From positions 10,354,001-10,418,000 of the forward strand of contig CP158635.1 of NCBI GenBank assembly GCA_050273025.1: 64,000 bases of DNA, written 5' to 3'. Shown here one piece after another: positions 10,130 through 29,110 of this stretch; position 1 is the first letter of the stretch; every line of letters begins with the position of its first letter. The stretch comes from Cenococcum geophilum (lineage: Eukaryota). Both the position numbers and the translations under genes were made by a program. The notes under the pieces are model-generated. The model was not told the origin of the DNA. It made no database searches and saw only the letters and a program-made list of their open reading frames with translations.

Positions 10130-10900
10130 GTGTCTGGAGGAACGTTAGTTCTAAAAGGAGTTAAATACCGCCCGAGGAAAAATGCCTGGAGGAACGTCAG
10201 TTCCGAAAGGAGTTAAATGCCTAGAGGAACGTTAGTGCCTAGAGGAACGTTAGTTCTGAAAGGAGTTGAATACCGCCCGAGAAAAAATTGGGGTGTGCTC
10301 GTCTTGCCCTCTTATTGGCCAAATCTTTCATCCTCTTATTGGTTAAATCTTTGAGCCCTCTTATTAGTCAAATTTTCTTACCCTCTTATCTGTTAAATCT
10401 TTAAGCCCTCCTATTAGTCAAATCTTTAAGCCCTCTTATCTGTTAAATCTTTAAGCCCTCTTATTTATCAAATCTTTAAGCCCTCTTATCTGTCAAATCT
10501 TTAAGCCCTCTTATTTATCAAATATTTGAGCCCCCCCCACTTATTAGATCTTTAAGCCCTCTCGTTTATCAAATCTTTAAGCCCTCTTATTCGTTAGATC
10601 TTTAAGCCCTCTTATTTATTAAATCTTTAAGCCCTCTTATTAGTTAGCTTTTTACCTCTTTAGGCTAATTAATATATTCTCTTCGGAATTTCTTCGCGCC
10701 GCCAGTATAGTCGGTTAGGAGGTATAGGTAGGAGAGGGGATCCTTAAGTGTATTCGCTTATTAAGATCGGCTTATTATTCGCTTAGGTGTAAACGTCCTA
10801 TCTCCTTTGCAAAGTAGATTATAGCTTTAACCGCGCTAATGTTTAGGAAACGCCATAAAAACAAGGGTGTGGCCAGTGCGGGTCAGCCGCCCTCCCTACT
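10130..10900 (+). repeat. Module 1 arm A: short terminal repeats, 25-bp tandem array, ~250-bp conserved block ending in core site
   Basis: Near-identical to 16520-17162 and 22835-23414. Contains tandem aaatctttaagccctcttat(n5) at ~10320-10645 and ends aagggtgtggccagtgcgggtcagccgccctccctact. Confidence 0.9.
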
Positions 10901-11635
10901 TATAGTGGCGACACCTAGCACTAAATCACTTTAATTATCGTTACATATAAGCTGTAACTATACTTATATAGCTAACTACCTCCATATTCGCACTAGCACT
11001 ATAGTTATAAATTTTAGACCTGTTTTAGACGCTGCTACTATCCCTAAACGTAATATACTATCTACCTATCTAACCTTTACTCTTAATTTGCTAAACCAGC
11101 GATATCTAACATCGGCTTCTATAAAATGTATATCGACTTTACCGTTACATCTTAAGTAGTGTTAATTAACCGTATAAGAATACGTTAAAGAGGTTATATA
11201 AGGCCGAACGGCACTATAAAGTAGTATAAATGCACTTGGGCAGTGTTGAGGGCAGAGTAAGTAGTATAGTTAGGCATATGTGTGTGGGAGTAAGAGTAAT
11301 TGCTAAGGTTTTATCCACAACGTAGGGCGTAATAAGAGGATACAATAATGTATATATAAAAGCCTTTGTAGTGTATATGTAGCGCCAAGCATATTTCTTA
11401 GTAGAGAGGGGCTTATAATTTATCTGCGCCCTACTTTATTTAGCTTTAATACTTTCCTAGCTTATATTAGCGTTATGCGCATTATAGAGAATTAAGTGCT
11501 ATAGCGTTAAGGGCGTAGTAAGCGTCGAGTTTTAGAGGTATTGCTGTCTTAGCTAGGCCTTACCCCGCTAATAAATCCCGCACAGTCCGTAATTGTAAAC
11601 TTACTATAGTGTGATTTAATACTAATTGCTAGAAA

Positions 11636-14600
11636 ATGGCGTTTGTATAGGAACAAGCTCCTTCTTAAATTTATAATAACTTTATAGACGTATATATAGA
11701 GCTTAGCTATCTAATACTAATTCTCTAACAGCAATCCTAAAATTTAGGAGGTATATAACGCTATATAAAAAGAAGAATAACTACTAACAGTAGTCTGCTT
11801 ATTGGTGTAGATAGTAAGTTAACCTATTTAAAATAGACGAGATGCAATAACTGCTAATCGTAGTCTGCTTATTAGTGTAGAGAGTAAGTTAACCTATTTA
11901 AGATGGATGAGATGCGATAACTGCTGACCATAGTCTGCTTATTGGTGTAAAGAGTAAGTTGACCTATTTAAGATAGATAAGATGCGATAACTGCTAACTA
12001 TAGTCTGCTTGTTAATGTAGGATATAAGTTAACCTATTTAAGGTGGATAAGATGCGATAACTGCTAACTATAGCCTACTTATTGGTATAGAGAGTAAGTT
12101 AACCTATTTAAGATGGACGAGATATAATAACTGCTAACCGTAATCTACTTATTAGTATAGAGAGTAAGTTAACCTATTTAAGATAGATAAGATGCAATAA
12201 CTGCTAACCATAGTCTGCTTGTTGGTGTAGTTAATAAGTTAGCCTATTTAAGATGGATGAGATATAATAACTACTAACTATGGTCTACTTATTGGTGTAG
12301 AGAGTAAGTTAACCTATTTAAGATGGATGAGATGCGATAACTACTAACTGTGGTCTACTTGTTGGTGTAGTGGGTAAGTTAACCTATTTAAGATAGACAA
12401 GATGTAATAACTGTTGACCGTGGTCTACTTATTAGTATAGTTAGTAAGTTAACCTATTTAAGATAGATAAGATACAATAACTGCTAACTATGGCCCGCTT
12501 ATTGGTGTAGGATATAAGTTAACCTATTTAAGATGGATAAGATACAATAACTACTAACCGTGGTCTGCTTATTGGTATAGAGAGTAAGTTAACCTATTTA
12601 AGATGGATAAGATATAATAACTGCTAACCGTGGCCTACTTATTAGTATAGTTAGTAAGTTAACCTATTTAAAATGGATGAGATACAATAACTGCTAACTA
12701 TAGTCTGCTTATTAGTGTAAAGAGTAAGTTAACCTATTTAAGATAGATAAGATGCAATAACTGCTAACTATAGTCTACTTATTGGTGTAGAGAGTAAGTT
12801 AACCTATTTAAGATAGACGAGATACAATAACTGCTAACCGTGGTCTGCTTATTGGTGTAGTTAGTAAGTTAACCTATTTAAGATAGATAAGATGTAATAA
12901 CTGCTAACCGTGGTCTGCTTATTGGTGTAGACAGTAAGTTAACCTATTTAAGATAGATAAGATGCGATAACTACTAACCGTGGCCTGCTTATTGGTATAG
13001 AGAGTAAGTTAACCTATTTAAAATGGATAAGATACAATAACTGCTAACTATAACCTGCTTATTGGTATAGAGAGTAAGTTAACCTATTTAAGATAGACGA
13101 GATATAATAACTGCTGACCGTAACCTGCTTATTGGTGTAGGTGGTAAGTTAACCTATTTAAAATGGATAAGATGCAATAACTACTAACTATGGTCTGCTT
13201 ATTGGTGTAGTAGGTAAGTTGACCTATTTAAGATGGATAAGATACAATAACTACTGACCGTGGTCTGCTTATTAGTGTAGAGAGTAAGTTAGCCTATTTA
13301 AGATAGATGAGATGCAATAACTACTAACCGTGGTCTACTTATTAGTGTAGTGGGTAAGTTAACCTATTTAAGATAGACGAGATATAATAACTGCTAACCG
13401 TGGCCTGCTTATTAGTATAGAGAGTAAGTTAACCTATTTAAGATGGATAAGATGCAATAACTGCTAACTATGGTCTGCTTATTGGTGTAGTAGGTAAGTT
13501 GACCTATTTAAGATAGATGAGATGCGATAACTGCTGACTGTGGTTTACTTATTAGTGTAGAGAGTAAGTTAACCTATTTAAGATAGATAAGATATAATAA
13601 CTGCTAACTATAGTCTACTTATTAGTGTAGAGAGTAAGTACTTTCTTTTTAGGTCTTTAATTTCTTTACATATCATGTTGATTTAGGGCATGACTTTAGA
13701 TATCTTAGACGCCTTTTATTAACAATCAGTTTGCTATAAGGTTTTTTAGCAACTAGCCCTAAAGCACATCTTCTAAAAATCCCGTCTCTGCTTAATTGTG
13801 TTTATACTGCGTAGATCTTATATCTTTAGACCACCCTAAAAGTGCCTTTAAATTACGCACTCTAAGAAATAATTGTCTTCTCTATAACCTGCTCCTTAAT
13901 ATAGTCCGGTGTAATTATAGTGGAGATTATTAACAGGTTCCTATAATTAGAGATGATTTAGCCCTTATAGTTACTACAGATAGTCTATATATTATTCGCC
14001 TTTATGCCAATCTAGGTTTGTCTTTACCCTCTTTTAATATATTTAACTATGTCGCTTACTACTTTATATTGGTAAAAGAACCATTAATAGATGGTAGTTA
14101 CGGTATTGAAATTGGACCTCCTATTTTATAAACAATCAATCTCTTCCAAATTTGCAGTGCTTTATACTTCCAGTTACTATATAAATGGCTTTAGGAGTGT
14201 GACCAAAGTCATATATATAACCGGTAAACACAATACTAGCTAACAAGAGTCATTTTTATTAGAGGTCTAGATCCTAACAGATTGATACTTCAGGAGTAAG
14301 CGAGTGGAGAGGACTATTTTATGCTCTCGCACTACTAGGGTAATCTAACGGATAAGGAGAAGAAGCGGTTCTACACCACTCTAAAAAACTACCGTAATTA
14401 AATAAAGGAGGGATTCAGCTATAATGATTTACTAAAGACATTTTAAGATACGGTTTAAGTGACTCGAGAACTTAGTAAAGAGTACCTTTAGATTAATTCT
14501 CTTTGTATAATTTAAGGAAATAAGGAGGATTGGAAAAGAGAAGCTGGGCGCATAGAATAGGTCTTTACCTCTACCTACTATACCATTACCGCGAGTTCGG

Positions 14601-15624
14601 CGCCTAATTGGAGAGATGGCTTCCTTAAGCGGAACTTAAGTCCTTAGTATTTTTAGATCTAAAGTAGCTCCTATAGATAGGTTTATATCTATAATAACAC
14701 ACACGACTATAGTAAAGATATAGATGAAAGCCCCCTTAATAAGAGAGCTTGGGTACTATAAGAGCGAGTGCTGTCCTATAAAACTATCCATTTTTCTGTA
14801 AAATAGACGTATTGGGAGTGTGCGGAAGATATACTTTACAAAAACTTTATAAGGCTATAATGGTAAAGCTAAAGTTAAAGGTCATAGTAGAGTAATATAC
14901 TCTAATATTATATTCTAGCCCACCGGGAAGGGAACATTTTATTCTTAATTTTAATTTTCCTAAACGGCTTACGGCGTTAGGGTACGATTATACGGTTAAC
15001 TTTGTCCAAATTCTTTTTAAGAAGTATTTACAATGCGGTCTTACCAATAAATCCAATAGGGATACTGCGATCTTTAGCTTGGTCAAGCGCATAGAAAGTG
15101 CCTTAGACACTAAAGGAAAATACGGAGTATTTTACTGTTTTTTCTCTAAACTCCTTCTATAGAAATGGTTTAATAGGGAGAATATAGATCCGATTTTTTA
15201 CAATAGTCGAAGGGTGCCATCCTAGTCTTAGATGGCATATAATGGAGGAATTGATTTTATATCGGATTTGACACTTATAGTTCCGCGCTCTAAAGATCTC
15301 GGATTTGACACCAATCGAAAGGCGTTAGTCGTAAAAATTAGATAGTTTAAACATTGTCAAATAGAACAAGAAGAGAAAGAGCATGCTATTTTTGCTAATT
15401 TAGAAAGAGTGGGGTCTTTATAGTTTAATATGGCAACCAAAATTGAGTTTAGGCATTGTGTTGTCGTTAGGATGCGTAATAATCAGGAGGAAAACCCCCA
15501 GAAGACTTACTATATACTAGTTGTCCGAGAAAAACCACTAGAGAAGGAGTATAAAAGACTTAGAGTTGGGAAAGTTAAAGCACGCTATATATTAAAGGAG
15601 AGCGATACTAAAAAGCTTATGTAA
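11636..15624 (+). pseudogene. HET-domain (PF06985-type) gene with 5' tandem intron/microexon array, RIPed
   Basis: YFMLSHY*G, DLLKTF*D, EYL*INSLCII*GNKEDWKREAGRI, PLNKRAWVL*ERVLS at ~14315-14790. Upstream LCLYC...CLL(Y/C)NLLL exon. ORF 15430..15624 is the C-terminus. Start codon tentative. Confidence 0.85.
11751..13686 (+). repeat. Tandem array, period 70 bp: 67-nt GT-AG intron + 3-nt variable microexon (27 microexons)
   Basis: Unit is GTAAGTtaacctatttaagatggatgagatgcgataaCTGCTGACcgtggtctgcttgttggtgTAG + NNN. The triplets start at 11811, 11881 ... 13631. Confidence 0.85.
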
Positions 15625-16073
15625 ATTTGTTATTAGTTTATAAGTTAGTAGTTTTCTTACGAGATATAATATAAGAGTATAAATATTAACGCTCCTAGGT
15701 TGTTAGCTTTAGTAACCCTTAATTAAAACAATATAGAGCTCCTCCTTTACTAATATAAAATTGCTAGTTCTTATACTCCTTAAGTATAGGCAATAGGTAA
15801 GCTTTAATACCTAGTAAGTATTACTAGTTCTTTTTAACAGCGAATAGGGCTCGTATATACCGTTTAATAAAAAGTTACTTATTAAAAGGTTAAGTATATA
15901 GTTGGATATATAAACGGAATATCGTATTTAAGGATAGCGGCAGTATTTAAATAGGTCCTTAAATTTATAGAATAAGACTAGTGTAAATGCGGCGCTAGTT
16001 GGCTTTATAAGCATAGTTATAATTTATATATAACGGTAATTAAAGTAATCTAGAACTAGATGTCGCTGCTATA

Positions 16074-16520
16074 AGTAGGGAGGGCGGCTAACCTGTACCA
16101 GCTATACCCTTATTAAGAGTCTACTTCTTAGGATTAAAGAATAGAGGAAATAGGGGAACTATAGTTAGTGTTGGAATAAATGGTCTTAAGTGTGGTGTTA
16201 TAGCGGTAATACACTACCTCCGCTGCTCGGCGTTTGACTTGGCGCGGTTACTAAGTTAACTAAACTATACCAAAACCCCTAACCTATATCCTCGTCAACG
16301 GAGACATATTAAAGGTATAGGCGCTCCCATAGGCGGGTCTTCTATAGGGATTAGCACTAGCCCTATAACTAGGGCTTTTTAACCCTAGGGCTCTTAATTA
16401 CACCTACACTTTTAAATTTGGCGCCATTGACGTATTTTAAACTAACCCTTTTATTTATAGTCGTCGGAGTAGAGTTTCTTTAGGCTTCGCGAAGCTACCT
16501 TTAGGGGCGATCTTTTATAC
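16074..16520 (+). repeat. Module 1 arm B: inverted core site + ~410-bp conserved block ending in palindrome and ggggcgatctcttgtac
   Basis: Near-identical to 22444-22838 and 28357-28797. Confidence 0.9.
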
Positions 16521-17162
16521 CTAGAGGAACGTAGTTCTAAAAGGTATTTAGTGCCTAGAGGAACGTCAGTTCTAAAAGGGTTAAATACCGCCCGAGGAAA
16601 AATTGGGTTAGGCTCATCTTGCCCTCTTATTAGTCAAATCTTTTCGCCCTTATTGGCTAAATTTTCTCGCCGTCTTATCGGTTAAATCTTCTCGCCCTTT
16701 TATTTATTAAATTTTCTTACCCTCTTATTTGTTAAATCTTCTTCGCTCTTATTTATTAAATCTTCTTACGCTCTTATTTATCGAACCTTCTTACGCTCTT
16801 ATTTATCAAATCTTCTCGCCCTCTTATTCGTCAAATCTTCTCGCCCTCTTATCCGCCAAATCTTCTCGCCCTCTTATTTATTAAATTTTCTCGCCCCTTT
16901 ACTAGTTAGCTTTTTACCTCTTTAGGCTAATTAATATATTCTCTTTAGAATTTCTTCACACCGCTAGTATAGTCGGTTAGGAGGTATAGGTAGGAGAGGG
17001 GATTCTTAAGTATATTCGCTTATTAAGATCGGCTTATTATTTACTTAGGTGTAAATATCTTATCTCCTTTACAAAGTAGATTATAGCTTTAACCGCGCTA
17101 ATATTTAGGAAACGCTATAAAAACAAGGGTATAGCCTTAGCGGGTTAGCCGCCCTCCCTACT
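16520..17162 (+). repeat. Module 2 arm A
   Basis: Homologous to 10130-10900; 25-bp tandem variant aaatcttctcgccctcttat(n5); ends in core site 17125-17162. Confidence 0.9.
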
Positions 17163-17594
17163 AGCGCGGCTAGGTAAAGGTAAGGATAAGGATAAAGGCT
17201 TAGCAAAAGTAAGGGTAAAAGCAAAGGCGAAGGTGAAGACCTATAAGGGTATGGCTAGAGTAGATCGGCACCCTCCCTTCTAGTACAGCCAAAGTTATAG
17301 TAGCACCGCTTAATTTAACTTTTGGTACTAATAAATTCCGCCACTTAAAGCGCGTAGTTTAAGCTACTTAGAATATTATATAGAGTTAATATCCTTACTT
17401 AACAGAGCGACTTAATAGGTTAGCGCCAGCCTAACGCCTCTTACTAGCGTATTTCCCGCCTAAGGGGGAAACTTATGTTTATATAGGTATATATCCCCCT
17501 TAACCCTCTATAAAATAGAGATATAAAGAAAATAATATATATTATATAGAAGGCTATTATAACCTTACTACTACTCTATTATACTATATAAGCT

Positions 17595-20500
17595 TTAACC
17601 CTTCTTTAAATTGGAGAAATAATATACCCCCTAATAAGTGTCCTAATATAATTATTGCATTCTAAATAGCTATATAAGTTGCTTAATAGTTAGGAGGAAG
17701 CTAAAGAATATTCCCCCCCTTTTTCTCTACCTAATTGTTTAACACAAATAGAGTATATAACTGCTCTAAAGAATCTAGCAATGCCTTAAGAGAGGATATA
17801 TTTACTACTCCTCTATCCGTTTTAAGGTATTAACCTAAAGTGGAGAATAAAAGGTTATTAATAACTATACCAATCTTAAGCATCTACAGCGCCACTCCTA
17901 TAACGGCGTCCCAGAGCCTAACTATCTCGTCGCCTAAGCTTAACGCCACTAGCTTACCGTCTAGCAAGAAGGCCACTAACGTAACCGAATTTAAATAGCC
18001 CTTAAATATCTATAGTGTTGCTCCTATAACGGCGTCCTAAAGCCTAACTGTCTTATTATATAAGCTTAACGCTACTAGCTTACCGTTTAGTAAGAAGGCC
18101 ACTAATATAACCTAATCTAAATAGCCCTTAAACGTCTATAGCGCCGCTTCTATAATAGCGTCCTAGAGCCTAACTATCTTATTATGCGAGCTTGACGCTA
18201 CTAGCTTACCATCTAGTAAAAAGGCCACTAACATAACCCAATCTAAATAGCCCTTAAACGTCTATAGCGCCGCTCCTATAACGGCGTCCTAAAGCCTAAC
18301 TATCTCATTACCCAAGCTTAACGCCACTAGCTTACTATCCGGCGAAAAGGCCACTAACGTGACCAAATCTAAATAGCCCTTAAATGTCTATAGCGCCGCT
18401 CTTATAATAGCGTCCTAGAGCCTAACTGTCTTATTATACAAGCTTAATGCTACTAGCTTACCGTCTAGCGAGAAGGCCACTAACATAACCCAATTTAAAT
18501 AGCCCTTAAACGTCTATAGCGCCGCTCCTATAACGGCGTCCTAGAGCCTAACTGTCTTATTATACAAGCTTAACGCTACTAGCTTGCCGTCTAGCAAAAA
18601 GGCCACTAACGTAACTAAATCTAAATGGCCCTTAAACGTCTATAGCGCCGCTCCTATAACGGCGTCCTAAAGCCTAACTATCTTGTTATATAAGCTTAAT
18701 GCCACCAGCTTACCGTCTAGCAAAAAGGCCACTAACGTAACTAAATCTAAATAGCCCTTAAATATCTGCAGCGCCGCTCCTATAATAGCGTCCTAGAGCC
18801 TAACTATCTTATTATACGAGCTTAACGCCACTAGCTTGCCGTTTAGCAAAAAGGCCACTAACGTAACTAAATTTAAATGGCCCTTAAACGTCTATAGCGC
18901 CGCTCCTATAACAGCGTCCTAGAGCCTAACTATCTTATTATACAAGCTTAACGCCACCAGCTTGCCATCTGGCAAAAAGGCTACTAATGTAACTAAATCT
19001 AAATAGCCCTTAAACGTCTGCAGCGCCGCTCCTATAACGGCGTCTTAGAGCCTAACTGTCTTATTATATAAGCTTAACGCCACTAGCTTGCCGTTTAGCG
19101 AGAAGGCCACTAATATAACCTAATCTAAATGGCCCTTAAACGTCTGCAGCGCCGCTCCCGTAATGGCGTCCTAGAGCCTAACTGTCTTATTATACAAGCT
19201 TAACGCCACTAGCTTGCCGTCCGGCGAGAAGGCCACTAACGTAACCCAATTTAAATAGCCCTTAAATGTCTGTAGCGCTGCTCCCGTAACGGCGTCTTAG
19301 AGCCTAACTATCTTATTGCCCAAGCTTAACGCTACCAGCTTACTATTTAGCGAGAAGGCCACTAACGTAACCTAATCTAAATAGCCCTCAAGTGTCTGCA
19401 GCGCCGCGCTTTAATTTACTTACACTTTTGGCTTTATTTGGATCCAAGTAGGGATATACTTCTTAAATCGTCTTTAAACAATACTCTTCTCTAGGGCGAA
19501 GATAAGGGCTAAGCAATATAGCTAGAGGGGTGCCTATTTAATCACTAATCAATTATATAGAATAAATCGCTTCGTATTATAAACAAACGCGTATAGGTTA
19601 GGACTTTTATTAGCCTAGGTATAAATTAGTTAGGATTACCTAGTATACTCTAATAAAGACTTATTAGAATTTAAGCCTCCAAGAATAATATTATAAGAAT
19701 CCCTTTTAAAGTCTTCCCTATCTAGCTAAGGGCCTTAAGCTAGTGAAGTAAATGCTCCTATAGAAACCAATAAACTTAGTCGTTATTATAGAGTTAAGCA
19801 CTACCCCTTTAAAGATGCTGGACCTAGTATAGATATATATATTAAACTTCCGGAGGTATATACTGCTCTAATCGACTACTATTAACCCCTTAAGTAGATA
19901 AGCCTGGAGCGTAAACGCTATAGATATCTCTTCCTAGTTTGCTAGATATAAGCCGTATATAGTATTAGGCTAAGGCTTTATACTATTGTCTCTTATTTAC
20001 CTAAAGGGCTTAATTATAGCATCTCTGCTTATCTAGGAGGAAATCTTAAAACGAGGGATGTAATAGGCGAATAGGAGCTCCCTAGTCCTTTAGTATGTTA
20101 AGTACTAAATGTAAATACTATAATCTAGAATTAATTGACTCCAGGCGAATATTAAGCAGTTTAGTAAGAGCGGTAGCAAAAAGCGGTTCTAATAGGATGG
20201 AAAGAGACCCGATTACCTATCTAAATATCTTAGCTAGCTTATCCTTATTCCGTTGGCCTATAACATTCTTAAATAAGTGCTGTAAGATTTAAGTGTATAT
20301 CTCGTTAAGCTCCTATATTGGCAATGTGTATAGAATATCGTGCTTCTAGTCGTGATAACGGTCTAACCCATTACTAGGAAGGAAGAGGTGGAGAAGATCT
20401 TACGGTAACTATTGGTCGTCGCCCTTTATAAAGCGATATACTGTTACGGCATAGATAAACAAGCTTTTAGCTCTCTGGATTAGAAGATTAATCTTCTTAT

Positions 20501-21471
20501 TACTAGGCCAATTAGTAGCGATATTTTTAAAGTCATCCCTTATCTCCCGGAATTTCACCTTTAAGAAGACTGAAATATCCTAGTTGATAATAGCCTGGGG
20601 TATATTATAGAGGACCAAATTATAATATATAATCCTTGGTATAGCCTAGAAGCTAAGCCGAAGTGGTGTATCTAGTCTGCTAGTAATAAAGATATAAAGC
20701 CGAGTAGTATTATAACCGTTTAGCTCTATTAAAAGTTAAAGGATAGCTCTAATATTATTATCCCCCTTATACTCATCTAACGCATTAACTATAATAATAA
20801 ACGGTAACTGAGGCGGATTGGCCTTAAGCTTTAATATTAGCTAGAGGATAAGCTAAGTCCACTAGTCGCGGAGACCTTAATAGGCAATATCGCGGCATTT
20901 AGCAATAACTTTGCAGATATGGCCTTTGAGAGCCTCTAACTAATATGCTAGCTAGGAGGCAATGCTAGGGAAGAACTTTACAGCATAGCTAACATCTCCA
21001 CCACCTTTTAAGAAGAAGAAGCTTACTCCTAGTCGATTTTCCTCATAGTATTTGCGTGCGATTGTATAGGCGATAGTGGACTTTCCTATACCTGCTAAGC
21101 CGTTCAGCCAGAAGATATACCTTTCGTCTTATATATCTGCCTATGACGTTATCTATTATAGAACGCCGGTGCGCGTGTTAGGGAGGTATAGAGGGTTATA
21201 TTACTTATCGTAGGAGTTAAAGGGCGCTTACTTAGCAGAAGGCAATAGTAAAAAAAGGTCCTCTAAGGAGAGAATAAAGAGTTAATAGCTGTGTTGAGCT
21301 GTCTATATAGGAATATATGCTCTACAATAATAGGTCGTCGTAGATAGTTATAGTAGTATATGATGGAAACTCACCATCTCTGTAATTGATCCCCACAAAT
21401 ACATTTGCTCTATCTATAGCCAATATCCCGCTAATATGCTGGGATATATAATAGTTATTAGTTTAGCTTAT
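17595..21471 (-). pseudogene. NACHT-WD40 NLR-like gene (NWD/HET-E family architecture) with short N-terminal amyloid-like motif, RIPed
   Basis: P-loop IFWLNGLAG(I/T)GKSTIA at ~21070-21118. Walker B IIIVNALDEY at ~20770-20800. Also IFITSRL, LFI(Y)A and LHLFLP/HDFL motifs, then 12 WD40 repeats. The N-terminus is only ~35 aa before LPSA*APFNSY. Confidence 0.92.
17884..19406 (-). repeat. 12 highly similar 126-bp WD40 repeats
   Basis: De-RIP unit GAALQTFEGHSDxVxSVAFSPDGKLVASSSxDKTVRLWDAVT; starts spaced 126 bp apart. Confidence 0.92.
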
Positions 21472-21844
21472 TTCTAGAATTTATACTAGAGAACCCACAG
21501 CAATTGCCGCCAGCGATATAGTAGTTAGAAGACTTTCTAAATCTTATACAAGCCTTACGGTATAGGGGCTTAGGCTCTATATTAGGATCTTAGAGAGAAT
21601 AGCGATATATATCTGTAAGAAGTTATAGGTAAAACGCGAACGGAGGGGTGTTAAAGCTAAGCGCCGCTAAGAATATAGTATTAGCTACACTGTGAATATA
21701 ATCTTAAGCGCCCCTCTGTAAGGATTTACGCATTTGTCCACACAATTAATACCTATACTTATTATTAAAATTGTTTATTATTTATAATGGCTTATATCTC
21801 TACTAACTCTTTTATAGGAGATTACTAACTCTTTATATAGGAGA

Positions 21845-22060
21845 TTAATCGCTCTTACCTTTAAAGAACTTATTAATATCTATATTGTTTACTATTCTAA
21901 CTATCCCCCTACTACCTTGTCCAGCCGCCACTTACTTTATATCTTGCTTAATTCCGCCTTAATCTTCTATATTAAAAAATCCTACTAGTAGGTTATCTTT
22001 ATCTGCTGTTATATTCTCAATCCTCTACCTAGTCCGGTCGTAGTATATCTTTACCACTAT
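21845..22060 (-). pseudogene. Short ORF resembling a two-repeat HET-s-related amyloid prion-forming domain
   Basis: Translates (I/M)VVKIYYDRTR*RIENITADKDNLLVGFFNIED*GGIKQDIK*VAAGQGSRGIVRIVNNIDINKFFKGKSD*: two pseudo-repeats plus an aromatic C-terminal tail, like HELLF/HRAM-type PFDs. Confidence 0.65.
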
Positions 22061-22281
22061 ATCCCTATAATTATTTTATTATTTATAAAATAGATAAAGC
22101 TATAAGCTAGCAAATAAGGCTGCAATTTTATAGCGCCACTTTTTTTATCAACCGCGTAATAGGCTAGTGTCTTATTTTGCGCGGCAGTAAGTATAGGGTA
22201 AAAGGAGCTGTAGTTAGTGTCTTTACCCCTACTAGCGCTCCCGGCGCTTTCTTTAACTCGCTACTATAATAAGGTTACGCT

Positions 22282-22838
22282 AGTAGGGAGGGTGGACGAC
22301 CCGCTCTAGCCACACCTTTATTAAAGTCGCCTTAGCTAGCTAATAATTAGTTAATAAGTTATACGCTACTACCTAGCAATAACCCGAATATTCTATATAG
22401 CTATTTGCGATTAGATAAGCTAAGTCATTATCTTGCCAGCGCTAGCAGGGAGGGCGCTAACCTGCTTAGGCCACCCTCTTATTAAGGGTCTACTTCCTAA
22501 GATTAAAGAATAGAGGAAATAGGGGAACTGTAGTTAGTGTTAAAATAAACAATCTTAAGTATAGTGTTGTGGCGGTAATACACTGCCTCCGCTGCTCGGC
22601 GTTTGGCTTAGCGCGGTTGCTAAGTCAACTAAACTATACCAAAACCCCTAACCTATATCCTTATCAACGGATACATATTAAAGGTATAGGGCTTTTTAAC
22701 CCTAGGGCTCTTAGTCACACCTATACTTTTAAATTTAGCGCTATTGACGTATTTCAGACTAACCCTTTTATTTATAGTCGTCGGAGCAAAGTTCCTTTAG
22801 GCTTCGCGAAGCTACCTCTAGGGGCGATCTCTTGTACC
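22282..22838 (+). repeat. Module 2 right end: core site, 123-bp mini-spacer, second core site, arm B
   Basis: Core sites at 22282-22319 and 22444-22480. Arm B is homologous to 16074-16520 with a ~50-bp internal deletion. Confidence 0.88.
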
Positions 22839-23414
22839 GCGCAAGAAAACTTTAGTAGCCACTCGTCTTGCCCTTTTATTAGCCAAATCTTTCACCCTCT
22901 TATTAGTTAAATCTTTAAGCCCTCTTATCAGTTAAATTTTCTTACCCTCTTATCTATTAAATCTTCAAGCCCTCCTATTAGTCAAATCTTTAAGCCCTCT
23001 TATTTATTAAATCTTTAAGCCCTCTTATTTATTAAATATTTAAGCCCCCCCTACTTATTAGATCTTTAAGCCCTCTCATTTATTAAATCTTTAAGCCCTC
23101 TTATTTATCAGATCTTTAAGCCCTCTTATTTATTAAATCTTTAAGCCCTCTTATTAGTTAGCTTTTTACCTCTTTAGGCTAATTAACATATTCTCTTCGG
23201 AATTTCTTTACGCCGCTAGTATAGTCGGTTAGGAGGTATAGGTAGGAGAGAGGATCCTTAAGTATATTTACTTATTAAGATTGGCTTATTATTCGCTTAG
23301 GTATAAACGTCCTATCTTATTTATAAAGTAGATTATAGCTTTAACCGCGCTAATGTTTAGGAAACGCCACAAAAACAAGGGTATAGCTAGTGCGGGCCGG
23401 CCGCCCTCCCTACT
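22835..23414 (+). repeat. Module 3 arm A
   Basis: Homologous to 10271-10900; core site 23377-23414. Confidence 0.9.
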
Positions 23415-23719
23415 AGCGCAGGCAGTATGCGGATAATTTAGGTTTAATTAGCTAGACAAAAATATTACTAATTATACTACAGTTAAATAGGGCTAAAGGG
23501 AGCTCGGAATACGTAGCTTAAATATAGCTCCGCAGTCTAGAGCATAATTATAGTTACTTACGTTATATAAGGTACGGGGTAGAAATCACCTCCTAGCTTA
23601 TTATCGTAGATTGTATAATCTAACTCAAAACAATAGGCCGCAGGTATACCCAGTCTTATTATCTAACAGTAATTAAAGCTTTTTATACTAAAACAGATGC
23701 TCGACTTTCAACCCTTAAA

Positions 23720-26700
23720 TTATCTTCGAAGTTAGAATATTATCAGGCTCTTAACCTTATCTAAAAGTTCTAGTTCACTAGTAAACCAGTATAGTCTAGC
23801 TTTACCTATTACCTAAAAACCCCCTATAACTAATTATAGGATAACATAGCTGTCGCATCCGAAGACCTTATAGAGTCTGTCTCCTTTTTAACTTTAAGGG
23901 TGCACCCATCCAAGTTCTCCAGTCTAAACGGTCGCGATACGCATACTACTTAATATCGTTATAACCAGAAAGCGCAAATAATTGTCTTACCCTATATTCC
24001 GATCTGTTTTCATTAGCTAAGAAGTCTAGATACTATCCTAAAAATCCATTATCTCCCCAAAGGCAATAAATGACCGATTTACATCAATCCATTCTAACAG
24101 CACCTTAAGTACATTCAGTTTCACAGGCCTAAGAAAGAACTTCTCAAGTTCGGTCTTGTCATTGAAGCTTTAAAGCCCTATAAGATCTGGCGGAAGCTCT
24201 ACGGTTGTTACCAATAGCCTTTAAGTTTTAAGTAGAGTGTTAAATATATAGGTCAAGCGGTTAAAATCGAACGGCACTAAATATGCTCCTTTTCCCGTAG
24301 TTACAACATGCGTCATAACATCGTTCCCGTTAGCAGAAAATGCACTACCTATACTATTAATAGTTCCGAGAATAGCGCTACGGACGGTAAGCGTATTTTT
24401 AAAGAAGCTCGGCTTATCCGTTTACTTAAGAAGGAACCTTAATAAACCCCATTAAATAGGCGCCTAAATCTACTTAAACTCTTACTCTACTAAGGCATTA
24501 TTTAGATCCCTCTAGTCAACCACCTATAAAGGCAGAGAGTTATATAGCCCTTAGCGTAAAGTCCAAAGGTATATTAAGTCGAGTAGGAAACCTTTCTCAA
24601 TTAAAGCTTTTAAGAAATCTATATAGGTTTCCTCAACTAATTAGCTATAGTTTGGTTTAGGGATAAATACGTCACTATTATATATAAGTCCCAGAAGCCC
24701 ATATATCTTATCTTTTAGGTCCATTAACAACGCATAGCAACTGCGGTATAATGCCTCTAGTAATTCAACAGGCTTTATAGCAAGTCTATTAATTCGAAAC
24801 TAAAGTAAGTTCTAAAACCTCGCTTTTAACTCATCACTATTAGTCCTGTTAATACCTACCGTAAAAATAGGGCGCAAAAAATGTTCAAGAGTCTCCTATA
24901 AAAGCTTATAATAACCACAGAATATAGTAATCCTTAATACTGCGGCAAGCTCTTAGATAATCCATACTCGTGTCTAGTACGGTTTTAAGAGTAACTAGAG
25001 GAAAGCACACTAAGCCAAACCCGACTGGACTTAGTAAGCCATAGCAGTATACTTAGCAGACAGAGTTTTAATATCCTCTTTTATTATATCTTATACATCG
25101 CCTAACCAAACAGCCACTTAGTTTGCTTTTTAGAATATTGCGCCCATTCTTCTAACCTAATAACTTCTTTCTTTGTCGTCCTCCTAATTAATATAAAGAG
25201 CATCCACCTAGACACGCTCCACTCTTTCTACTCTTAATCGCCTTAGAGCTAAATAAAGGTTCGCAGTCACAGGGAATCTAAGGTCATTTACAGTGAGGCT
25301 GACTTTATTAGTCAGTTCGCCCTAGTAATATAATAGGGCCGCAAACGGCGGAGCTTTAAATAGAGATATATGGTCAAGCAAACATAATAAGGGCGATATA
25401 TTCTTATCTAACGGGTGTATAGTTAGAAGCCGGATCTATTTAGCTACTTAGTTAAGGTTCTGTCCCTATAGTTGGATAGATAGATATTAGAATTCTTCCC
25501 ACTTAGAGGACGATATAGGTTAGTAGCTGGGTGTTTAGTTCTAGGCTAGATCTATTAAAGAGCCTTAGTTAGCCAATTATCCTCTTTTACCATTACGGTT
25601 TACTTACTCACTATATCCATTAAGTAGCCTTAGTTAGCTAGTCATCCTCTTCTACCATTACGGTTTACTTACAAACTATATCCATTAAAGAGCCTTAGTT
25701 AGCTAGTTATCCTCTTCTACTATTACGGTTTGCTTACAAACTATATCTATTAAAGAGCCTTAGTTAGCCAGTTATCCTCTTCTACTATTACGGTTTACTT
25801 ACTTCCTATATCTATTAAAGAGCCTTAATTAGCCAGTTATCCTCTTCTACTATTACGGTTTACTTACAAACTATATCCATTAAGGAGCCTTAGTTAGCCA
25901 ATCATCCTCTTCTACTATTATAGTTTACTTATAGGCTATATCTATTAAGGAGCCTTAGTTAGCCAGTTATCCTCTTCTACTATTACAGTTCACTTATAAG
26001 CTATATCTATTAAGGAGCCTTAGTTAGCTAGTTATCCTCTTCTACTATTATAGTTTACTTACTTCCTATATCCATTAAGGAGCCTTAGTTAGCTAGTTAT
26101 CCTCTTCTACTATTACGGTTTACTTATAAACTATATCTATTAAGGAACCTTAGTTAGCTAGTTATCCTCTTCTACTATTATAGTTTACTTACTTCCTATA
26201 TCTATTAAGGAGCCTTAGTTAGCCAGTTATCCTCTTCTACTATTATAGTTTACTTATAGGCTATATCCATTAAGGAGCCTTAGTTAGCCAGTTATTATCT
26301 TTTACTATTATAGTTTACTTACAGGCTATATCTATAAAGGAGCCTTAGTTAGCCAGTTATCCTCTTCTACTATTACAGCTTACTTACAAGCTATATCCAT
26401 TAAGGAGCCTTAGTTAGCTAGTTATCCTCTTCTACTATTACAGTTTACTTACTTCCTATATCCATTAAAGAGCCTTAATTAGCCAGTCATCCTCTTCTAC
26501 TATTATAGTTCACTTACAAACTATATCCATTAAAGAGCCTTAGTTAGCCAGTTATCCTCTTTTACTATTACGGTTTACTTACAAACTATATCCATTAAGG
26601 AGCCTTAATTAGCCAATCATCCTCTTCTACTATTATGGTTTACTTATAGGCTATATCTATTAAGGAGCCTTAGTTAGCCAGTTATCCTCTTCTACCATTA

Positions 26701-27920
26701 CAATTCACTTATAAGCTATATCTATTAAGGAACCTTAGTTAGCTAGTTACCCTCTTTTACTATTACGGTTTACTTACTTCCTATATCCATTAAGGAGCCT
26801 TAGTTAGCTAGTTATCCACTTCTACTATTATAGTTTACTTATAGGCTATATCCATCAAGGAGCCTTAATTAGCCAGTCATTCTCTTCTACTATTATAGTT
26901 TACTTACATCCTATATCCATTAAGGAGCCTTAGTTAGCCAGTTATCCTCTTCTACCATTATAGTTTACTTACAAGCTATATCCATTAAGGAGCCTTAGTT
27001 AGCTAGTTATCCTCTTCTATTATTACAGTTTACTTACTTCCTATATCCATTAAAGAGCCTTAATTAGCCAGTTATCCTCTTCTACCATTATAGTTTACTT
27101 ATAAGCTATATCCATTAAGAAGCCTTAGTTAGCCAGTTATCCTCTTCTACTATTACGGTTTACTTACAGGCTATATTTATAAAGGAGCCTTAGTTAGCCA
27201 GTTATCCTCTTCTACTATTACAGTTTACTTACAGGCTATATCTATTAAGGAGCCTTAGTTAGCCAGTTATCCTCTTCTACTATTACAGTTTACTTATAGG
27301 CTATATCTATAAAGGAGCCTTAGTTAGCCAGTTATCCTCTTTTACTATTACGGTTTACTTACAGGCTATATCCATAAAGGAGCCTTAGTTAGCCAGTTAT
27401 TCTCTTCTACCATTATAGTTTACTTACAGGCTATATCTATTAAAGAGCCTTAGTTAGCTAGTTATCCTCTTCTATTATTACGGTTTACTTACTTCCTATA
27501 TCCATAAAAGAGCCTTAGTTAGCCAGTTATCCTCTTCTACTATTACAGTTTACTTACAGGCTATATCCATTAAGGAGCCTTAATTAGCCAGTTATCCTCT
27601 TCTACTATCACAGTTTACTTACTTCCTATATCTATTAAGGAGCCTTAGTTAGCCAGTTATCCTCTTCTACTATTACAGTTCACTTACTTCCTATATCCAT
27701 AAAGGAGCCTTAGTTAGCCAGTTATCCCCTTTTACTATTACAGTTTACTTACTTCCTATATCCATCAAGGAGCTTTAGTTAGCCACTTACTGCCTATATT
27801 TATTAAGGAGCCTTAGCAAGTTATCCTCCCCCTACGGTTTATATACCATCTAGATTATAAAATTATCCTTTTAGCTATTTAACAGTACCTCTAAGGTCCT
27901 AGCTTTCTTACCTTTAACTT
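23720..27920 (-). pseudogene. HET-6-like HET-domain gene with 5' tandem intron/microexon array, RIPed
   Basis: IRLLTIHP, FAALLYY*G, VTANLYLALRRLR, VDALYIN*EDDKERSY*VRRMGAIF*KAN*VAVWLG, PY*TRVWII*ELA and DPKDKIYGLLGL motifs at ~24690-25435. Start tentative. Confidence 0.87.
25546..27846 (-). repeat. Tandem array, period 65 bp: 62-nt GT-AG intron + 3-nt variable microexon (34 regular microexons + 1 preceding a shortened intron)
   Basis: Minus-strand unit is GTAAGTgaaccgtaatggtagaagaggatgactgGCTAACtaaggctccttgatggataTAG + NNN. Triplets lie at + positions 25608, 25673 ... 27753, and 27791. Confidence 0.85.
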
Positions 27921-28195
27921 ATATATAGCTTCCTATACGGCCGTTCCGTCTCAATAGTATATATTATTCAGTTAACCAAAATAAGCTCTTACTAGCCGTA
28001 CGGCCTTACAATCCTAGGAGGTGATTTCTACCCCACACCTTATATAACGTAAGCAACTATAATTATACTCTAGACTGCAAAGCTATATTTAAGCCACGTA
28101 TTCCGAGCTCCCTTTAGCCCCATTTAACTGCAGTATAATTAGCGACATTTTTATCTAGCTGATTTAACCCAAATTATCCGCATACTGCCTACGCT

Positions 28196-28797
28196 AGTAG
28201 GGAGGGCGACTAGCCCGCACCAGCTATACCCTTATTAAAGTCGCCTTAGCTAGCTAATAATTAGTTAATAAGTTGCACGCTGCTACCTAGCGATAACCCG
28301 AATTTCTATACAGTCATTTGCGATTAAACTAGCTTCGTTATTATCTTACTAGCGCTAGCAGGGAGGGCGCCGACCTACTCAGGCTACCCTTTTTATTAAG
28401 GGTTTACTTCCTAGGATTAAAGAATAGAGGAAATAGGAACTGTGGTTAGTGTTAAAATAAACGGTCTTAAGTATAGTATTATAGCAGTAATGCACTACCT
28501 CCGCTGCTCGGCGTTTGGCTTGGCGCAGTTACTAAGTTAACTAAACCGTGCCAAAACCCCTAACCTATATCCTCGTTAACGGATACACATCAAACAGGCG
28601 CTCCCATAGGCGGGTCTTCCATAGGGATTAGCACTAACCCTATAACCAGGGCTTTTCAACCCTAGGGCTCTTAATCACACCTATACTTTTAAATTTAGCG
28701 CCATTAACGTATTTTAAACCAACCCTTTTATTTATAGTCATTAGAGCAGAGTTCTTCCAGGCTTCGCGAAGCCACCTCTAGGGGCGATCTCTTATAC
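28196..28797 (+). repeat. Module 3 right end: core site, 123-bp mini-spacer, second core site, arm B
   Basis: Core sites at 28196-28233 and 28357-28392; spacer homologous to 22320-22443; ends ggcttcgcgaagccacctctaggggcgatctcttatac. Confidence 0.88.
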
Positions 28798-28809
28798 GGG
28801 AATATAAGC

Positions 28810-29110
28810 TATAGGGGATTGGTTCCCATAGGGCGGTAAAACACGTAGGCATTGGCACCCATAGGGGATTCGTTAGCGTAGGGGATTTATTAGCGCAGGG
28901 GATTTGTTAGAGTAGGGGACTAGATCCTATAGGGGATTTATTAGCATAGGGGATTCGTTAGAGTAGGGGACTAGATCCTATAGGGGATTTATTAAAGTAG
29001 GGGACTAGTTCCCATAGGGCGGCGAAATACGTAGGCATTGGCTCCTATAGGGGATTTATTTAAATAGGGGATTGGTTAAAGTAGGGGATTGGTTAGAGTA
29101 GGGGATTAAT
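28810..29110. repeat. Irregular ~16-20-bp tandem repeat (taggggatt...)
   Basis: Many copies of taggggatt(t/g/c)(a/g)ttag; the block cccatagggcgg..aaa.acgtaggcattggc occurs twice. Confidence 0.75.

Follow-up and report, generated by a model that had tools for sequence, protein, structure and literature searches.

The mini-exon arrays described in the truffle Tuber melanosporum are the closest known counterpart of the element that we analyse here. They belong to the expanded NACHT-ANK (nank) family studied by Iotti et al. 2012 (Fungal Biol 116:261-275) and, as this work is summarised in passages of four later papers (PMC4986451, PMC3689799, PMC9815663, PMC13449251), nank genes contain mini-exons, put at "tens" or "dozens" and called "codon-sized" or "3 bp", that are said to diversify, through alternative splicing, the C-terminal recognition domain. 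Exons of 3 nt are also spliced in Coprinopsis, where a partial account of long-read data gives 27 such exons in 26 genes. The truffle case has so far been isolated: in the literature we found no mini-exon arrays described on HET genes or outside Tuber, and Iotti et al. 2012 itself may say more. We analysed a stretch of 64,000 nt from the genome of Cenococcum geophilum (assembly GCA_050273025.1, contig CP158635.1, positions 10,354,001 to 10,418,000; hereafter "the window"), in which a tandem array of 65-bp units is found 5' of a HET-6-like gene. With a probability of roughly 0.65, we consider this array to be a codon-sized mini-exon array that has decayed, which would place the same device on HET-domain genes and in a different ascomycete.

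The architecture itself is not new, contrary to how it was presented in the original prediction made from this sequence, since mini-exon arrays are already published, as cited above, for truffle NACHT-ANK genes. As far as the available summaries describe them, nank arrays and the array of the window have in common tens of serial 3-nt exons, short introns, a location in fungal non-self genes and the property that any splice choice stays in frame. The two differ in their host gene (a stand-alone HET-6-like gene here, NACHT-ANK genes in the truffle), in the position of the array (the 5' end of the gene here, the C-terminal recognition part in nank genes) and in their state, the copy in the window being a pseudogene without RNA reads and heavily altered by repeat-induced point mutation (RIP). 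The array of the window would thus work like nank arrays, but this comparison indicates that it is not a nank gene.

Using a regular expression on the minus strand, we detected 35 junctions of the form TAG-NNN-[G/A]TAAG[T/C] with a 65-bp period, and the spacing between the acceptor AG and the donor position is exactly 3 nt in 35 out of 35 cases. Tandem Repeats Finder places the array at 25545-27789, with 34.5 copies, 88% matches, 0% indels and a score of 3244. In gene order, the triplets read GCA GAA GAA GAA CCT GAA CCTx5 CTT ... TTT TTT TGA, exactly reproducing the list given in the original prediction. Judging from its sequence, the 65-bp unit has the form of a complete short fungal-type intron plus 3 nt: the 62-nt intron look-alike starts with a GTAAGT donor, carries GGCTAAC 23 nt before its 3' AG and ends with ATAG. 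The pattern GTAAGT..CTAAC..TAG-NNN-RTAAGT matched 34 times in the window, always inside this array or inside a second array of 70-bp units, and 0 times in 100 dinucleotide-preserving shuffles. In the regular units, AG is preserved throughout (34 of 34), CTAAC is found in 28 (CTAAT in the other six) and 25 retain the donor GT; the losses are RIP-type transitions. The form that had been predicted for the unit (GTAAGT, GCTAAC, TAG and 3 nt) was therefore found, but with all three signals intact in only 21 of the 34 regular units; similarly, the array was confirmed but is slightly longer than first proposed, with an edge unit, a truncated unit, a 35-nt unit and a tail. From its 5' edge to the end of its host gene, the locus is composed as follows:

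27841-27914, minus strand: diverged 5' edge unit, with a donor-like GTAAGA at 27911-27906, AGCTAA replacing the branch motif and GATGGTATAT at its end

27794-27840, minus strand: 5'-truncated unit without donor, its acceptor TAG at 27796-27794

27756-27793, minus strand: triplet GCA (27793-27791) and a 35-nt unit with an internal deletion, in which GTAAGT is joined straight to GGCTAAC...TAG

25546-27755, minus strand: 34 regular 65-bp units forming the core of the array, each made of a 3-nt triplet and a 62-nt intron look-alike

25502-25545, minus strand: last triplet, CCT, at 25545-25543, then a diverged tail from 25542 to 25502 that aligns to the 3' half of the unit

23735-25501, minus strand: body of a stand-alone HET-6-like gene, inactivated by RIP (Pfam HET domain and tblastn with the relative P0001)

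When aligned to the regular units, the edge unit has in common with them its GTAAG.AA.C start, a GCTAA motif and an ATGG.TAT end. An ATG followed by GTATAT at 27849-27847 was considered as a start codon and ruled out, since this ATGG is the conserved 3' motif of the intron, as it also is in a metagenome array of the same intron family (L013). In the alignment of the tail to the unit, GCTACTAAC stands at the position of the branch motif, and the TCTAAG end brings an AAG to the position of the acceptor. An array hosting snoRNAs or miRNAs was also ruled out, since Rfam gave no match at E<=1 across positions 11000-29000 of the window and since the fold stability of the units is unremarkable (z between -0.78 and +1.56).

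That the array lies 5' of a HET-6-like domain, as originally noticed, was borne out by a Pfam search in which stops were read as X: the HET domain PF06985 was detected at 25342-24950 on the minus strand (E 3.9e-11). Using tblastn, the intact relative P0001 aligns at 25369-23735 over 545 of its 545 residues with 72% identity and no gaps, and the closest HET relatives are HET-only proteins of 516-555 aa, the closest named ones coming from Dothideomycetes. Since P0001 is colinear without a gap and since these relatives are HET-only, the array belongs to a stand-alone HET-6-like gene and the NOD-like receptor (NLR) gene found further downstream is a neighbour; the same two points, with colinearity reaching 23735, rule out a single HET-NACHT-WD40 fusion gene.

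This HET gene and its array have been mutated by RIP and the locus is a silent pseudogene, an inactive relic today. In the part aligned to P0001, the gene contains 35 stops and 0 gaps, P0001 having Q at 21 of the stop positions, W at 9, R at 4 and H at 1, and the amino-acid changes of the gene (S>L, E>K, D>N, A>V, T>I, P>L and M>I) match C>T and G>A transitions, as expected from a RIP-type inactivation. The window is AT-rich (GC 0.27-0.42), with RIP indices TpA/ApT of 1.60 and (CpA+TpG)/(ApC+GpT) of 0.59, the corresponding values over the array being 1.97 and 0.42. Inside the array, ATAAGT replaces GTAAGT only where the preceding triplet ends in T, pointing to the TpG>TpA change that is typical of RIP. 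In the single RNA run that was mapped (X18, about 12% read, at >=90% likeness, and possibly from another strain), depth was 0 over 25424-28428 and there was next to nothing on the HET gene. Since the locus is a silent pseudogene, its own transcripts settle nothing.

The variation between units is very unevenly distributed. When the 34 regular units were stacked, the three triplet columns contained 44 transversions and 8 transitions, while the 62 intron columns contained 10 transversions and otherwise transitions only. There is no TCT triplet in the array, and the CTT and TTT triplets are C>T derivatives of CCT, so that the array before mutation would essentially have consisted of GAA and CCT units, together with single GCA, GAT and TGA/TGG units, encoding a Glu/Pro-rich stretch if it was translated. 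We compared this pattern with what would be expected from a functionless minisatellite that grew by slippage or unequal exchange and that was tolerated since intron plus 3n nucleotides keeps the frame, its triplet variety then being meaningless. The perfect 65-bp periodicity without indels, a dead locus without RNA reads and the small triplet alphabet (GAA, CCT and C>T derivatives) would all be in line with such an origin, which we nevertheless find improbable: neutral decay would spread transversions over the 65 columns, and 44 of the 54 fall into the three triplet columns.

According to the mechanism that we propose, head-to-tail amplification would have multiplied one short spliceosomal intron of 62 nt, together with one 3-nt exon, into at least 35 copies. 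The HET-6-like gene that has these copies at its 5' end would have 25501-23735 as its main exon. In intact members of the class, every triplet would be a phase-0 codon. Since the length of each unit is that of an intron plus 3 nt, the frame is kept whichever downstream acceptor a donor is joined to: full splicing would add one residue per unit and skipping would give shorter in-frame variants. At the same time, the near-identical introns would offer a long homologous substrate for unequal recombination, by which codons could be added, removed and reordered while being free to differ. The constraint on the repeat would then act on the intron and no longer on the protein, following the same logic as in the conserved WD40, ANK or TPR repeats of NLRs. 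Later on, the HET gene and its array were mutated by RIP and their expression was lost. That these units were spliced is inferred with the help of published reports known to us at second hand, to which we also owe, next to our own reasoning, the idea that alternative splicing and recombination would be the source of variety; in this particular gene, we infer translation of the triplets.

The second array of the window is also found beside a HET domain (PF06985, E 5.4e-13, 14315-14764, plus strand):

11776-13639, plus strand: array with 26.6 copies of a 70-bp unit (67-nt intron plus 3 nt), lying 5' of another HET-domain pseudogene

It gives the same picture of variation with a richer triplet alphabet (AGA, TTA, GAT, TGG/TAG, GTG, ACA and ATA). 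The two arrays had been thought to be independently derived. When their introns were compared after stripping the donor hexamer and the acceptor that are common to all introns, the mean pair score was 23.6 versus -5.7 for shuffled sequences (z 13.4, with 0 of 200 shuffles as high), while unrelated intron families gave z values of 0.3 to 4.2 against the arrays of the window. The introns of the 65-bp and 70-bp arrays are hence homologous, and their alignment shows GTAAGT(A/T)AAC, ATAACTG(G)CTAAC and CT.CTT.(A/T)TGG.T.TAG as common stretches. The same intron family was also found in the metagenome contigs L109, L013 and L089. In L109, where the array spans the whole contig on the minus strand, the intron is nearly that of the 70-bp unit (z 32.6) with different triplets (GGG, TTT, GAA, CGG, TAG, TTA and GAC), indicating that one intron family is associated with different codon sets between loci or strains.

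Near-identical introns multiplied in one genome are the hallmark of introner-like elements, according to the part of PMC4457414 that deals with them, and one intron family is found at two loci of the window and in L109, L013 and L089. One may then consider that a mobile intron of this type inserted repeatedly beside itself, leaving the triplets as remnants of target sites or junctions. We consider this scenario highly improbable: the copies are strictly tandem with 3-nt spacing rather than dispersed in unrelated genes, adjacent insertions with a 3-bp duplication would presumably leave identical or 6-nt spacers and not single differing triplets, and the units show ordinary fold stability. Within the window, moreover, we detected no dispersal, all 34 pattern matches lying in the two tandem arrays and none as a single copy.

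We then turned to a metagenome collection, which contains at least 114 stretches with three consecutive junctions. Among the matches listed, and after dropping the duplicates L026 and L064 and the array L010, there are at least 42 runs of five or more junctions, of which at least 38 have three or more distinct triplets, and the variable arrays fall into many unrelated intron families. Fifteen arrays were analysed column by column (the 65-bp and 70-bp arrays and 13 metagenome arrays). In these, positions 1 and 2 of the triplet rank among the columns with the greatest variability, at 1.3-1.9 bits in most arrays, compared with a mean variability of 0.15-1.1 bits in the intron interior, and the fraction of transversions is 0.15-0.47 in the triplets versus 0.000-0.13 in the intron interior. 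Such a concentration of variability in the first two codon positions may be the signature expected of selection for amino-acid variety. The same triplet bias in 15 arrays from unrelated intron families argues further against a meaningless minisatellite, as does the conservation of splice signals in arrays whose interiors have diverged (GTRAGT, YTNAYYAAC and YAG in L049, CTRAC in L013) and in L021, whose introns are unlike each other. In L013, L003, L082 and L033, the third triplet base is a near-fixed T and the first two bases vary, the opposite of ordinary coding sequences; either selection favouring amino-acid change or a constraint that the donor site places on the final base of the exon may lie behind this.

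Several candidates were rejected during this survey: L010 is a CRISPR array with adjoining Cas1 and Cas4 genes and L060 a bacterial contig with flagellin and ABC-transporter genes, both being false positives of the junction pattern, L036 and L056 are GTAAGT microsatellites, and L025, L038 and L104, with constant triplets, were counted as false positives as well. Any genome-wide scan for mini-exon arrays will consequently need filters against CRISPR and bacterial repeats such as L010 and L060.

Domain scans covered stop-free open reading frames (ORFs) from both strands of 13 loci (140 ORFs, minimum length 100 aa) and from the array strand of 21 loci (143 ORFs, minimum length 70 aa). At four of these loci, the ORF directly upstream on the array strand encodes NACHT, NLR winged-helix or ankyrin domains: NACHT/NPHP3_N beside the L049 array, the winged-helix domain PF22939, typical of fungal NACHT proteins, at L078, and ankyrin repeats at L040 and L027. 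At L049 (1798-5724, plus strand), 31 mini-exon units come after a 537-aa NACHT ORF and give, in phase 0, the residues G F Q E Q E E E F Q E F Q Q P E E Q ... Since the named proteins closest to this ORF are from Mycena (about 40% identity), the device would also exist in a basidiomycete-like genome. At L040 (465-1829, minus strand) and L027 (2202-2474, plus strand), ankyrin-repeat ORFs run straight into mini-exon arrays, which is the arrangement reported, in the summaries available to us, for truffle NACHT-ANK genes. A fifth locus, L021, was picked up by tblastn with P0001. Its HET gene is intact, with the HET domain (E 9.5e-27) at about 1831-2274, and is preceded at 660-1190 on the plus strand by six canonical and mutually dissimilar introns, with TAT, CGA, AAC, GCG and a 6-nt ATAGAG as the exons between them. 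These may represent an old and diverged mini-exon array, and their location before an intact HET gene indicates that HET-linked mini-exons are not peculiar to the window; we found no start codon in L021 that reads through its mini-exons in phase 0. Other domain matches near arrays were Ras/Roc (L018) and pieces of retroelements (L033 and L013), and L003 has neighbours only on the opposite strand. In terms of hosts, the window, L013, L089 and L109 would represent Ascomycota with one intron family, and L049 would represent Basidiomycota. With many metagenome arrays, some of them beside NACHT, ankyrin or HET ORFs, the proposal that the intron plus 3-nt design is general rather than a chance minisatellite was upheld.

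The original prediction had left the phase of the triplets undecided, and the related arrays provide an answer. Among 341 triplets from 29 loci (L060 dropped), only 3 are stops, compared with 21.1 expected from the frequencies of first letters and last two letters; by type, we counted 1 TAA versus 11.3 expected, 0 TGA versus 5.6 and 2 TAG versus 4.2. With L060 included, position-specific composition predicts 17.1 stops, and base shuffles gave 23.1 +/- 4.5, never fewer than 10 in 2000. This avoidance of stops is also difficult to reconcile with a functionless minisatellite. The joins to neighbouring ORFs point in the same direction: at L049, the NACHT ORF ends ...CAA CTA AAG/GT and is followed by one ordinary phase-0 intron and then by CAG/GGA/GTGAGT; at L040, 450 ankyrin codons stop exactly at the first donor, in phase 0; at L021, the HET ORF is opened by the last acceptor; and in L013, which carries the intron family of the window, the last acceptor is followed by 125 open codons in phase 0, versus 11 and 46 in the other phases. 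The only stop that phase 0 contains in the 65-bp array itself is the TGA at its end, which a RIP-type G>A change can produce from TGG. Based on stop avoidance and on ORF joins in related arrays, the triplets are thus predicted to be read in phase 0.

It had also been suggested that the triplets may be read in phase 1 (the frame shifted by 2 nt), in which TGA at CCT-GAA junctions would act as a splicing-dependent on/off switch of the protein. This frame indeed contains 8 stops in the 65-bp array and continues into the HET gene provided that the exon starts again immediately downstream of the last TAG. In the related arrays, however, 12% of the codons in this frame are stops (38/311), phase 0 being nearly stop-free, so that it cannot be the reading frame, and the intact examples join their ORFs in phase 0; a switch of this kind therefore appears hardly credible. 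The frame shifted by 1 nt contains 5 stops in 311 codons, no fewer than the 5.2 obtained with order-shuffled triplets, and is as such uninformative. As for the term "barcode" that accompanied these proposals, the idea of a general device held up, but the word is not the best one, the published reading being diversification by alternative splicing.

The array may have been joined to its HET gene through the diverged tail. The distances 25558-25501 (57) and 25501-25369 (132) are both multiples of 3, which puts base 25501 in frame with HET. As the tail also brings an AAG to the acceptor position, a phase-0 path from the array to the HET ORF exists, via an uncommon acceptor, and we give about even odds to a translation of the array as a Glu/Pro-rich N-terminal extension of the HET protein.

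Several observations weigh against a mini-exon array that was spliced and translated in this way. The in-frame join to the HET gene works only through the uncommon AAG acceptor at 25504-25502, and splicing to the last TAG (25546) gives an exon that is out of the HET frame and reaches a stop after 33 codons. The ATA at 25516-25514 is in the HET frame and may be a former start codon, in which case the array would lie in the 5' untranslated region (UTR), and we found no convincing upstream exon with a start codon 5' of the array. There is no transcript support at this locus either, with an X18 depth of 0 over the array. Finally, the original prediction had proposed to scan fungal genomes for tandem AG-NNN-GTAAGT arrays enriched near HET or NLR genes; in our scan of the metagenome collection, the association with such genes is based on five loci, and 13 of the 21 eukaryote-like array loci scanned are without a recognisable domain.

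Some of these points would be explained if the array was of the same type but remained untranslated, as a stack of leader introns in the 5' UTR, with translation starting at a former ATG at 25516-25514, just upstream of the IRLL motif. The ATA at this position gives a plausible HET N-terminus, (M)SSSKWEEF.YLSIQL.GQNLN.VAK.IRLLTIHP, and the HET gene has four ATG>ATA changes at other positions, visible as M>I; the missing upstream start exon and the out-of-frame continuation past the last TAG would also fit. Still, related arrays avoid stop triplets and join their ORFs in phase 0, the AAG of the tail aligns with the acceptor of the unit and restores the HET frame, and phase 0 of the 65-bp array has its single stop of RIP type. 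Altogether, we judge an untranslated leader to be rather unlikely, though it is the alternative to a translated mini-exon array that we take most seriously.

The NLR gene on the same strand of the window is probably a gene separate from the HET-6-like gene:

17875-21125, minus strand: stop-riddled NACHT-WD40 NLR, with NPHP3_N at 21125-20676 (Pfam E 2.1e-17) and WD40 repeats at 19407-17875

Its twelve WD40 repeats of 126 bp (42 aa; 12.2 copies as a tandem repeat) show high internal conservation (HIC) and RIP-type stops. X18 coverage was confined to partial matches on these repeats, with 93% of the placed reads running into unlike sequence, and these reads probably come from intact paralogues expressed elsewhere. 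Three arrays of 25-bp units, with 11-13 copies each and nearly one consensus, are found at 10306-10641, 16617-16896 and 22870-23160, between the HET and NLR genes, and look like pieces of a dispersed repeat element. In DNA runs, the contig depth over the mini-exon arrays was raised, but collapsed repeat words account for this rise, so that no copy number was drawn from it. In one contig from DNA run X1 (window 25499-26249), the 5' end of the HET gene is joined to an array unit via 34 differing letters, mostly transitions; this hints at a second and diverged copy of the junction between array and HET gene in the same genome, and such a copy would account for the action of RIP.

Fungal NLR and HET genes form a candidate system of innate immunity and allorecognition, the source of whose variety is an open question. 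Our survey suggests that the mini-exon device is common in soil and root fungi and that it bears marks of selection, namely hypervariable codons, stop avoidance and conserved splice signals. More tentatively, and with somewhat less than even confidence, we propose that mini-exon arrays are a widespread diversity device of fungi, in which codons would be reshuffled in the germ line by recombination between introns and sampled in the cell by the choice of splice sites, which would serve HET death effectors at their N-terminus as well as NACHT/ANK receptors, and which many unrelated intron families would have acquired or retained. Since gene callers do not model 3-nt exons, mini-exon genes are expected to be truncated in databases; consistently, database NACHT models close to the L049 ORF run into the intron at the corresponding position and end there (...QLK/V..). 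These ideas can be tested on intact loci with long-read RNA.

Beyond the truffle genes, four other systems share features with the array. Schistosoma micro-exon genes also contain runs of very short symmetric exons that yield splice variants without frame loss, but their exons are of 6-36 nt and lie in unrelated long introns without tandem intron copies, and they encode secreted parasite proteins. The introner-like elements of Dothideomycetes and other fungi resemble the array in that near-identical spliceosomal introns have been multiplied in one genome, but they are, in the part of PMC4457414 that describes them, dispersed singly in unrelated genes, whereas the introns of the window are strictly tandem with 3-nt spacers. 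Brown-algal candidates for immune receptors, which contain one exon per repeat (Zambounis 2012, Teng 2024, both as reported in part of PMC13449251), have intron-separated repeats whose shuffling by splicing and recombination has been proposed; according to the same report, their exons are whole LRR or TPR repeats, versus single codons in the array of the window. Finally, the HIC repeats of fungal NLRs (WD40, ANK and TPR), in the partial accounts of PMC9815663 (citing Paoletti 2007 and Chevanne 2010) and of Dyrka 2014 (PMC4986451), are like the array near-identical tandem units with few variable positions, linked to NLR or HET genes, for which unequal crossing-over has been proposed. A HIC-type WD40 array with 126-bp units lies in the window itself, 6 kb from the mini-exon array, and the comparison between the two is telling in terms of what is repeated: the HIC unit is wholly coding (about 42 aa), while 62 of the 65 nt of the mini-exon unit would be intron and a single codon would be coding.

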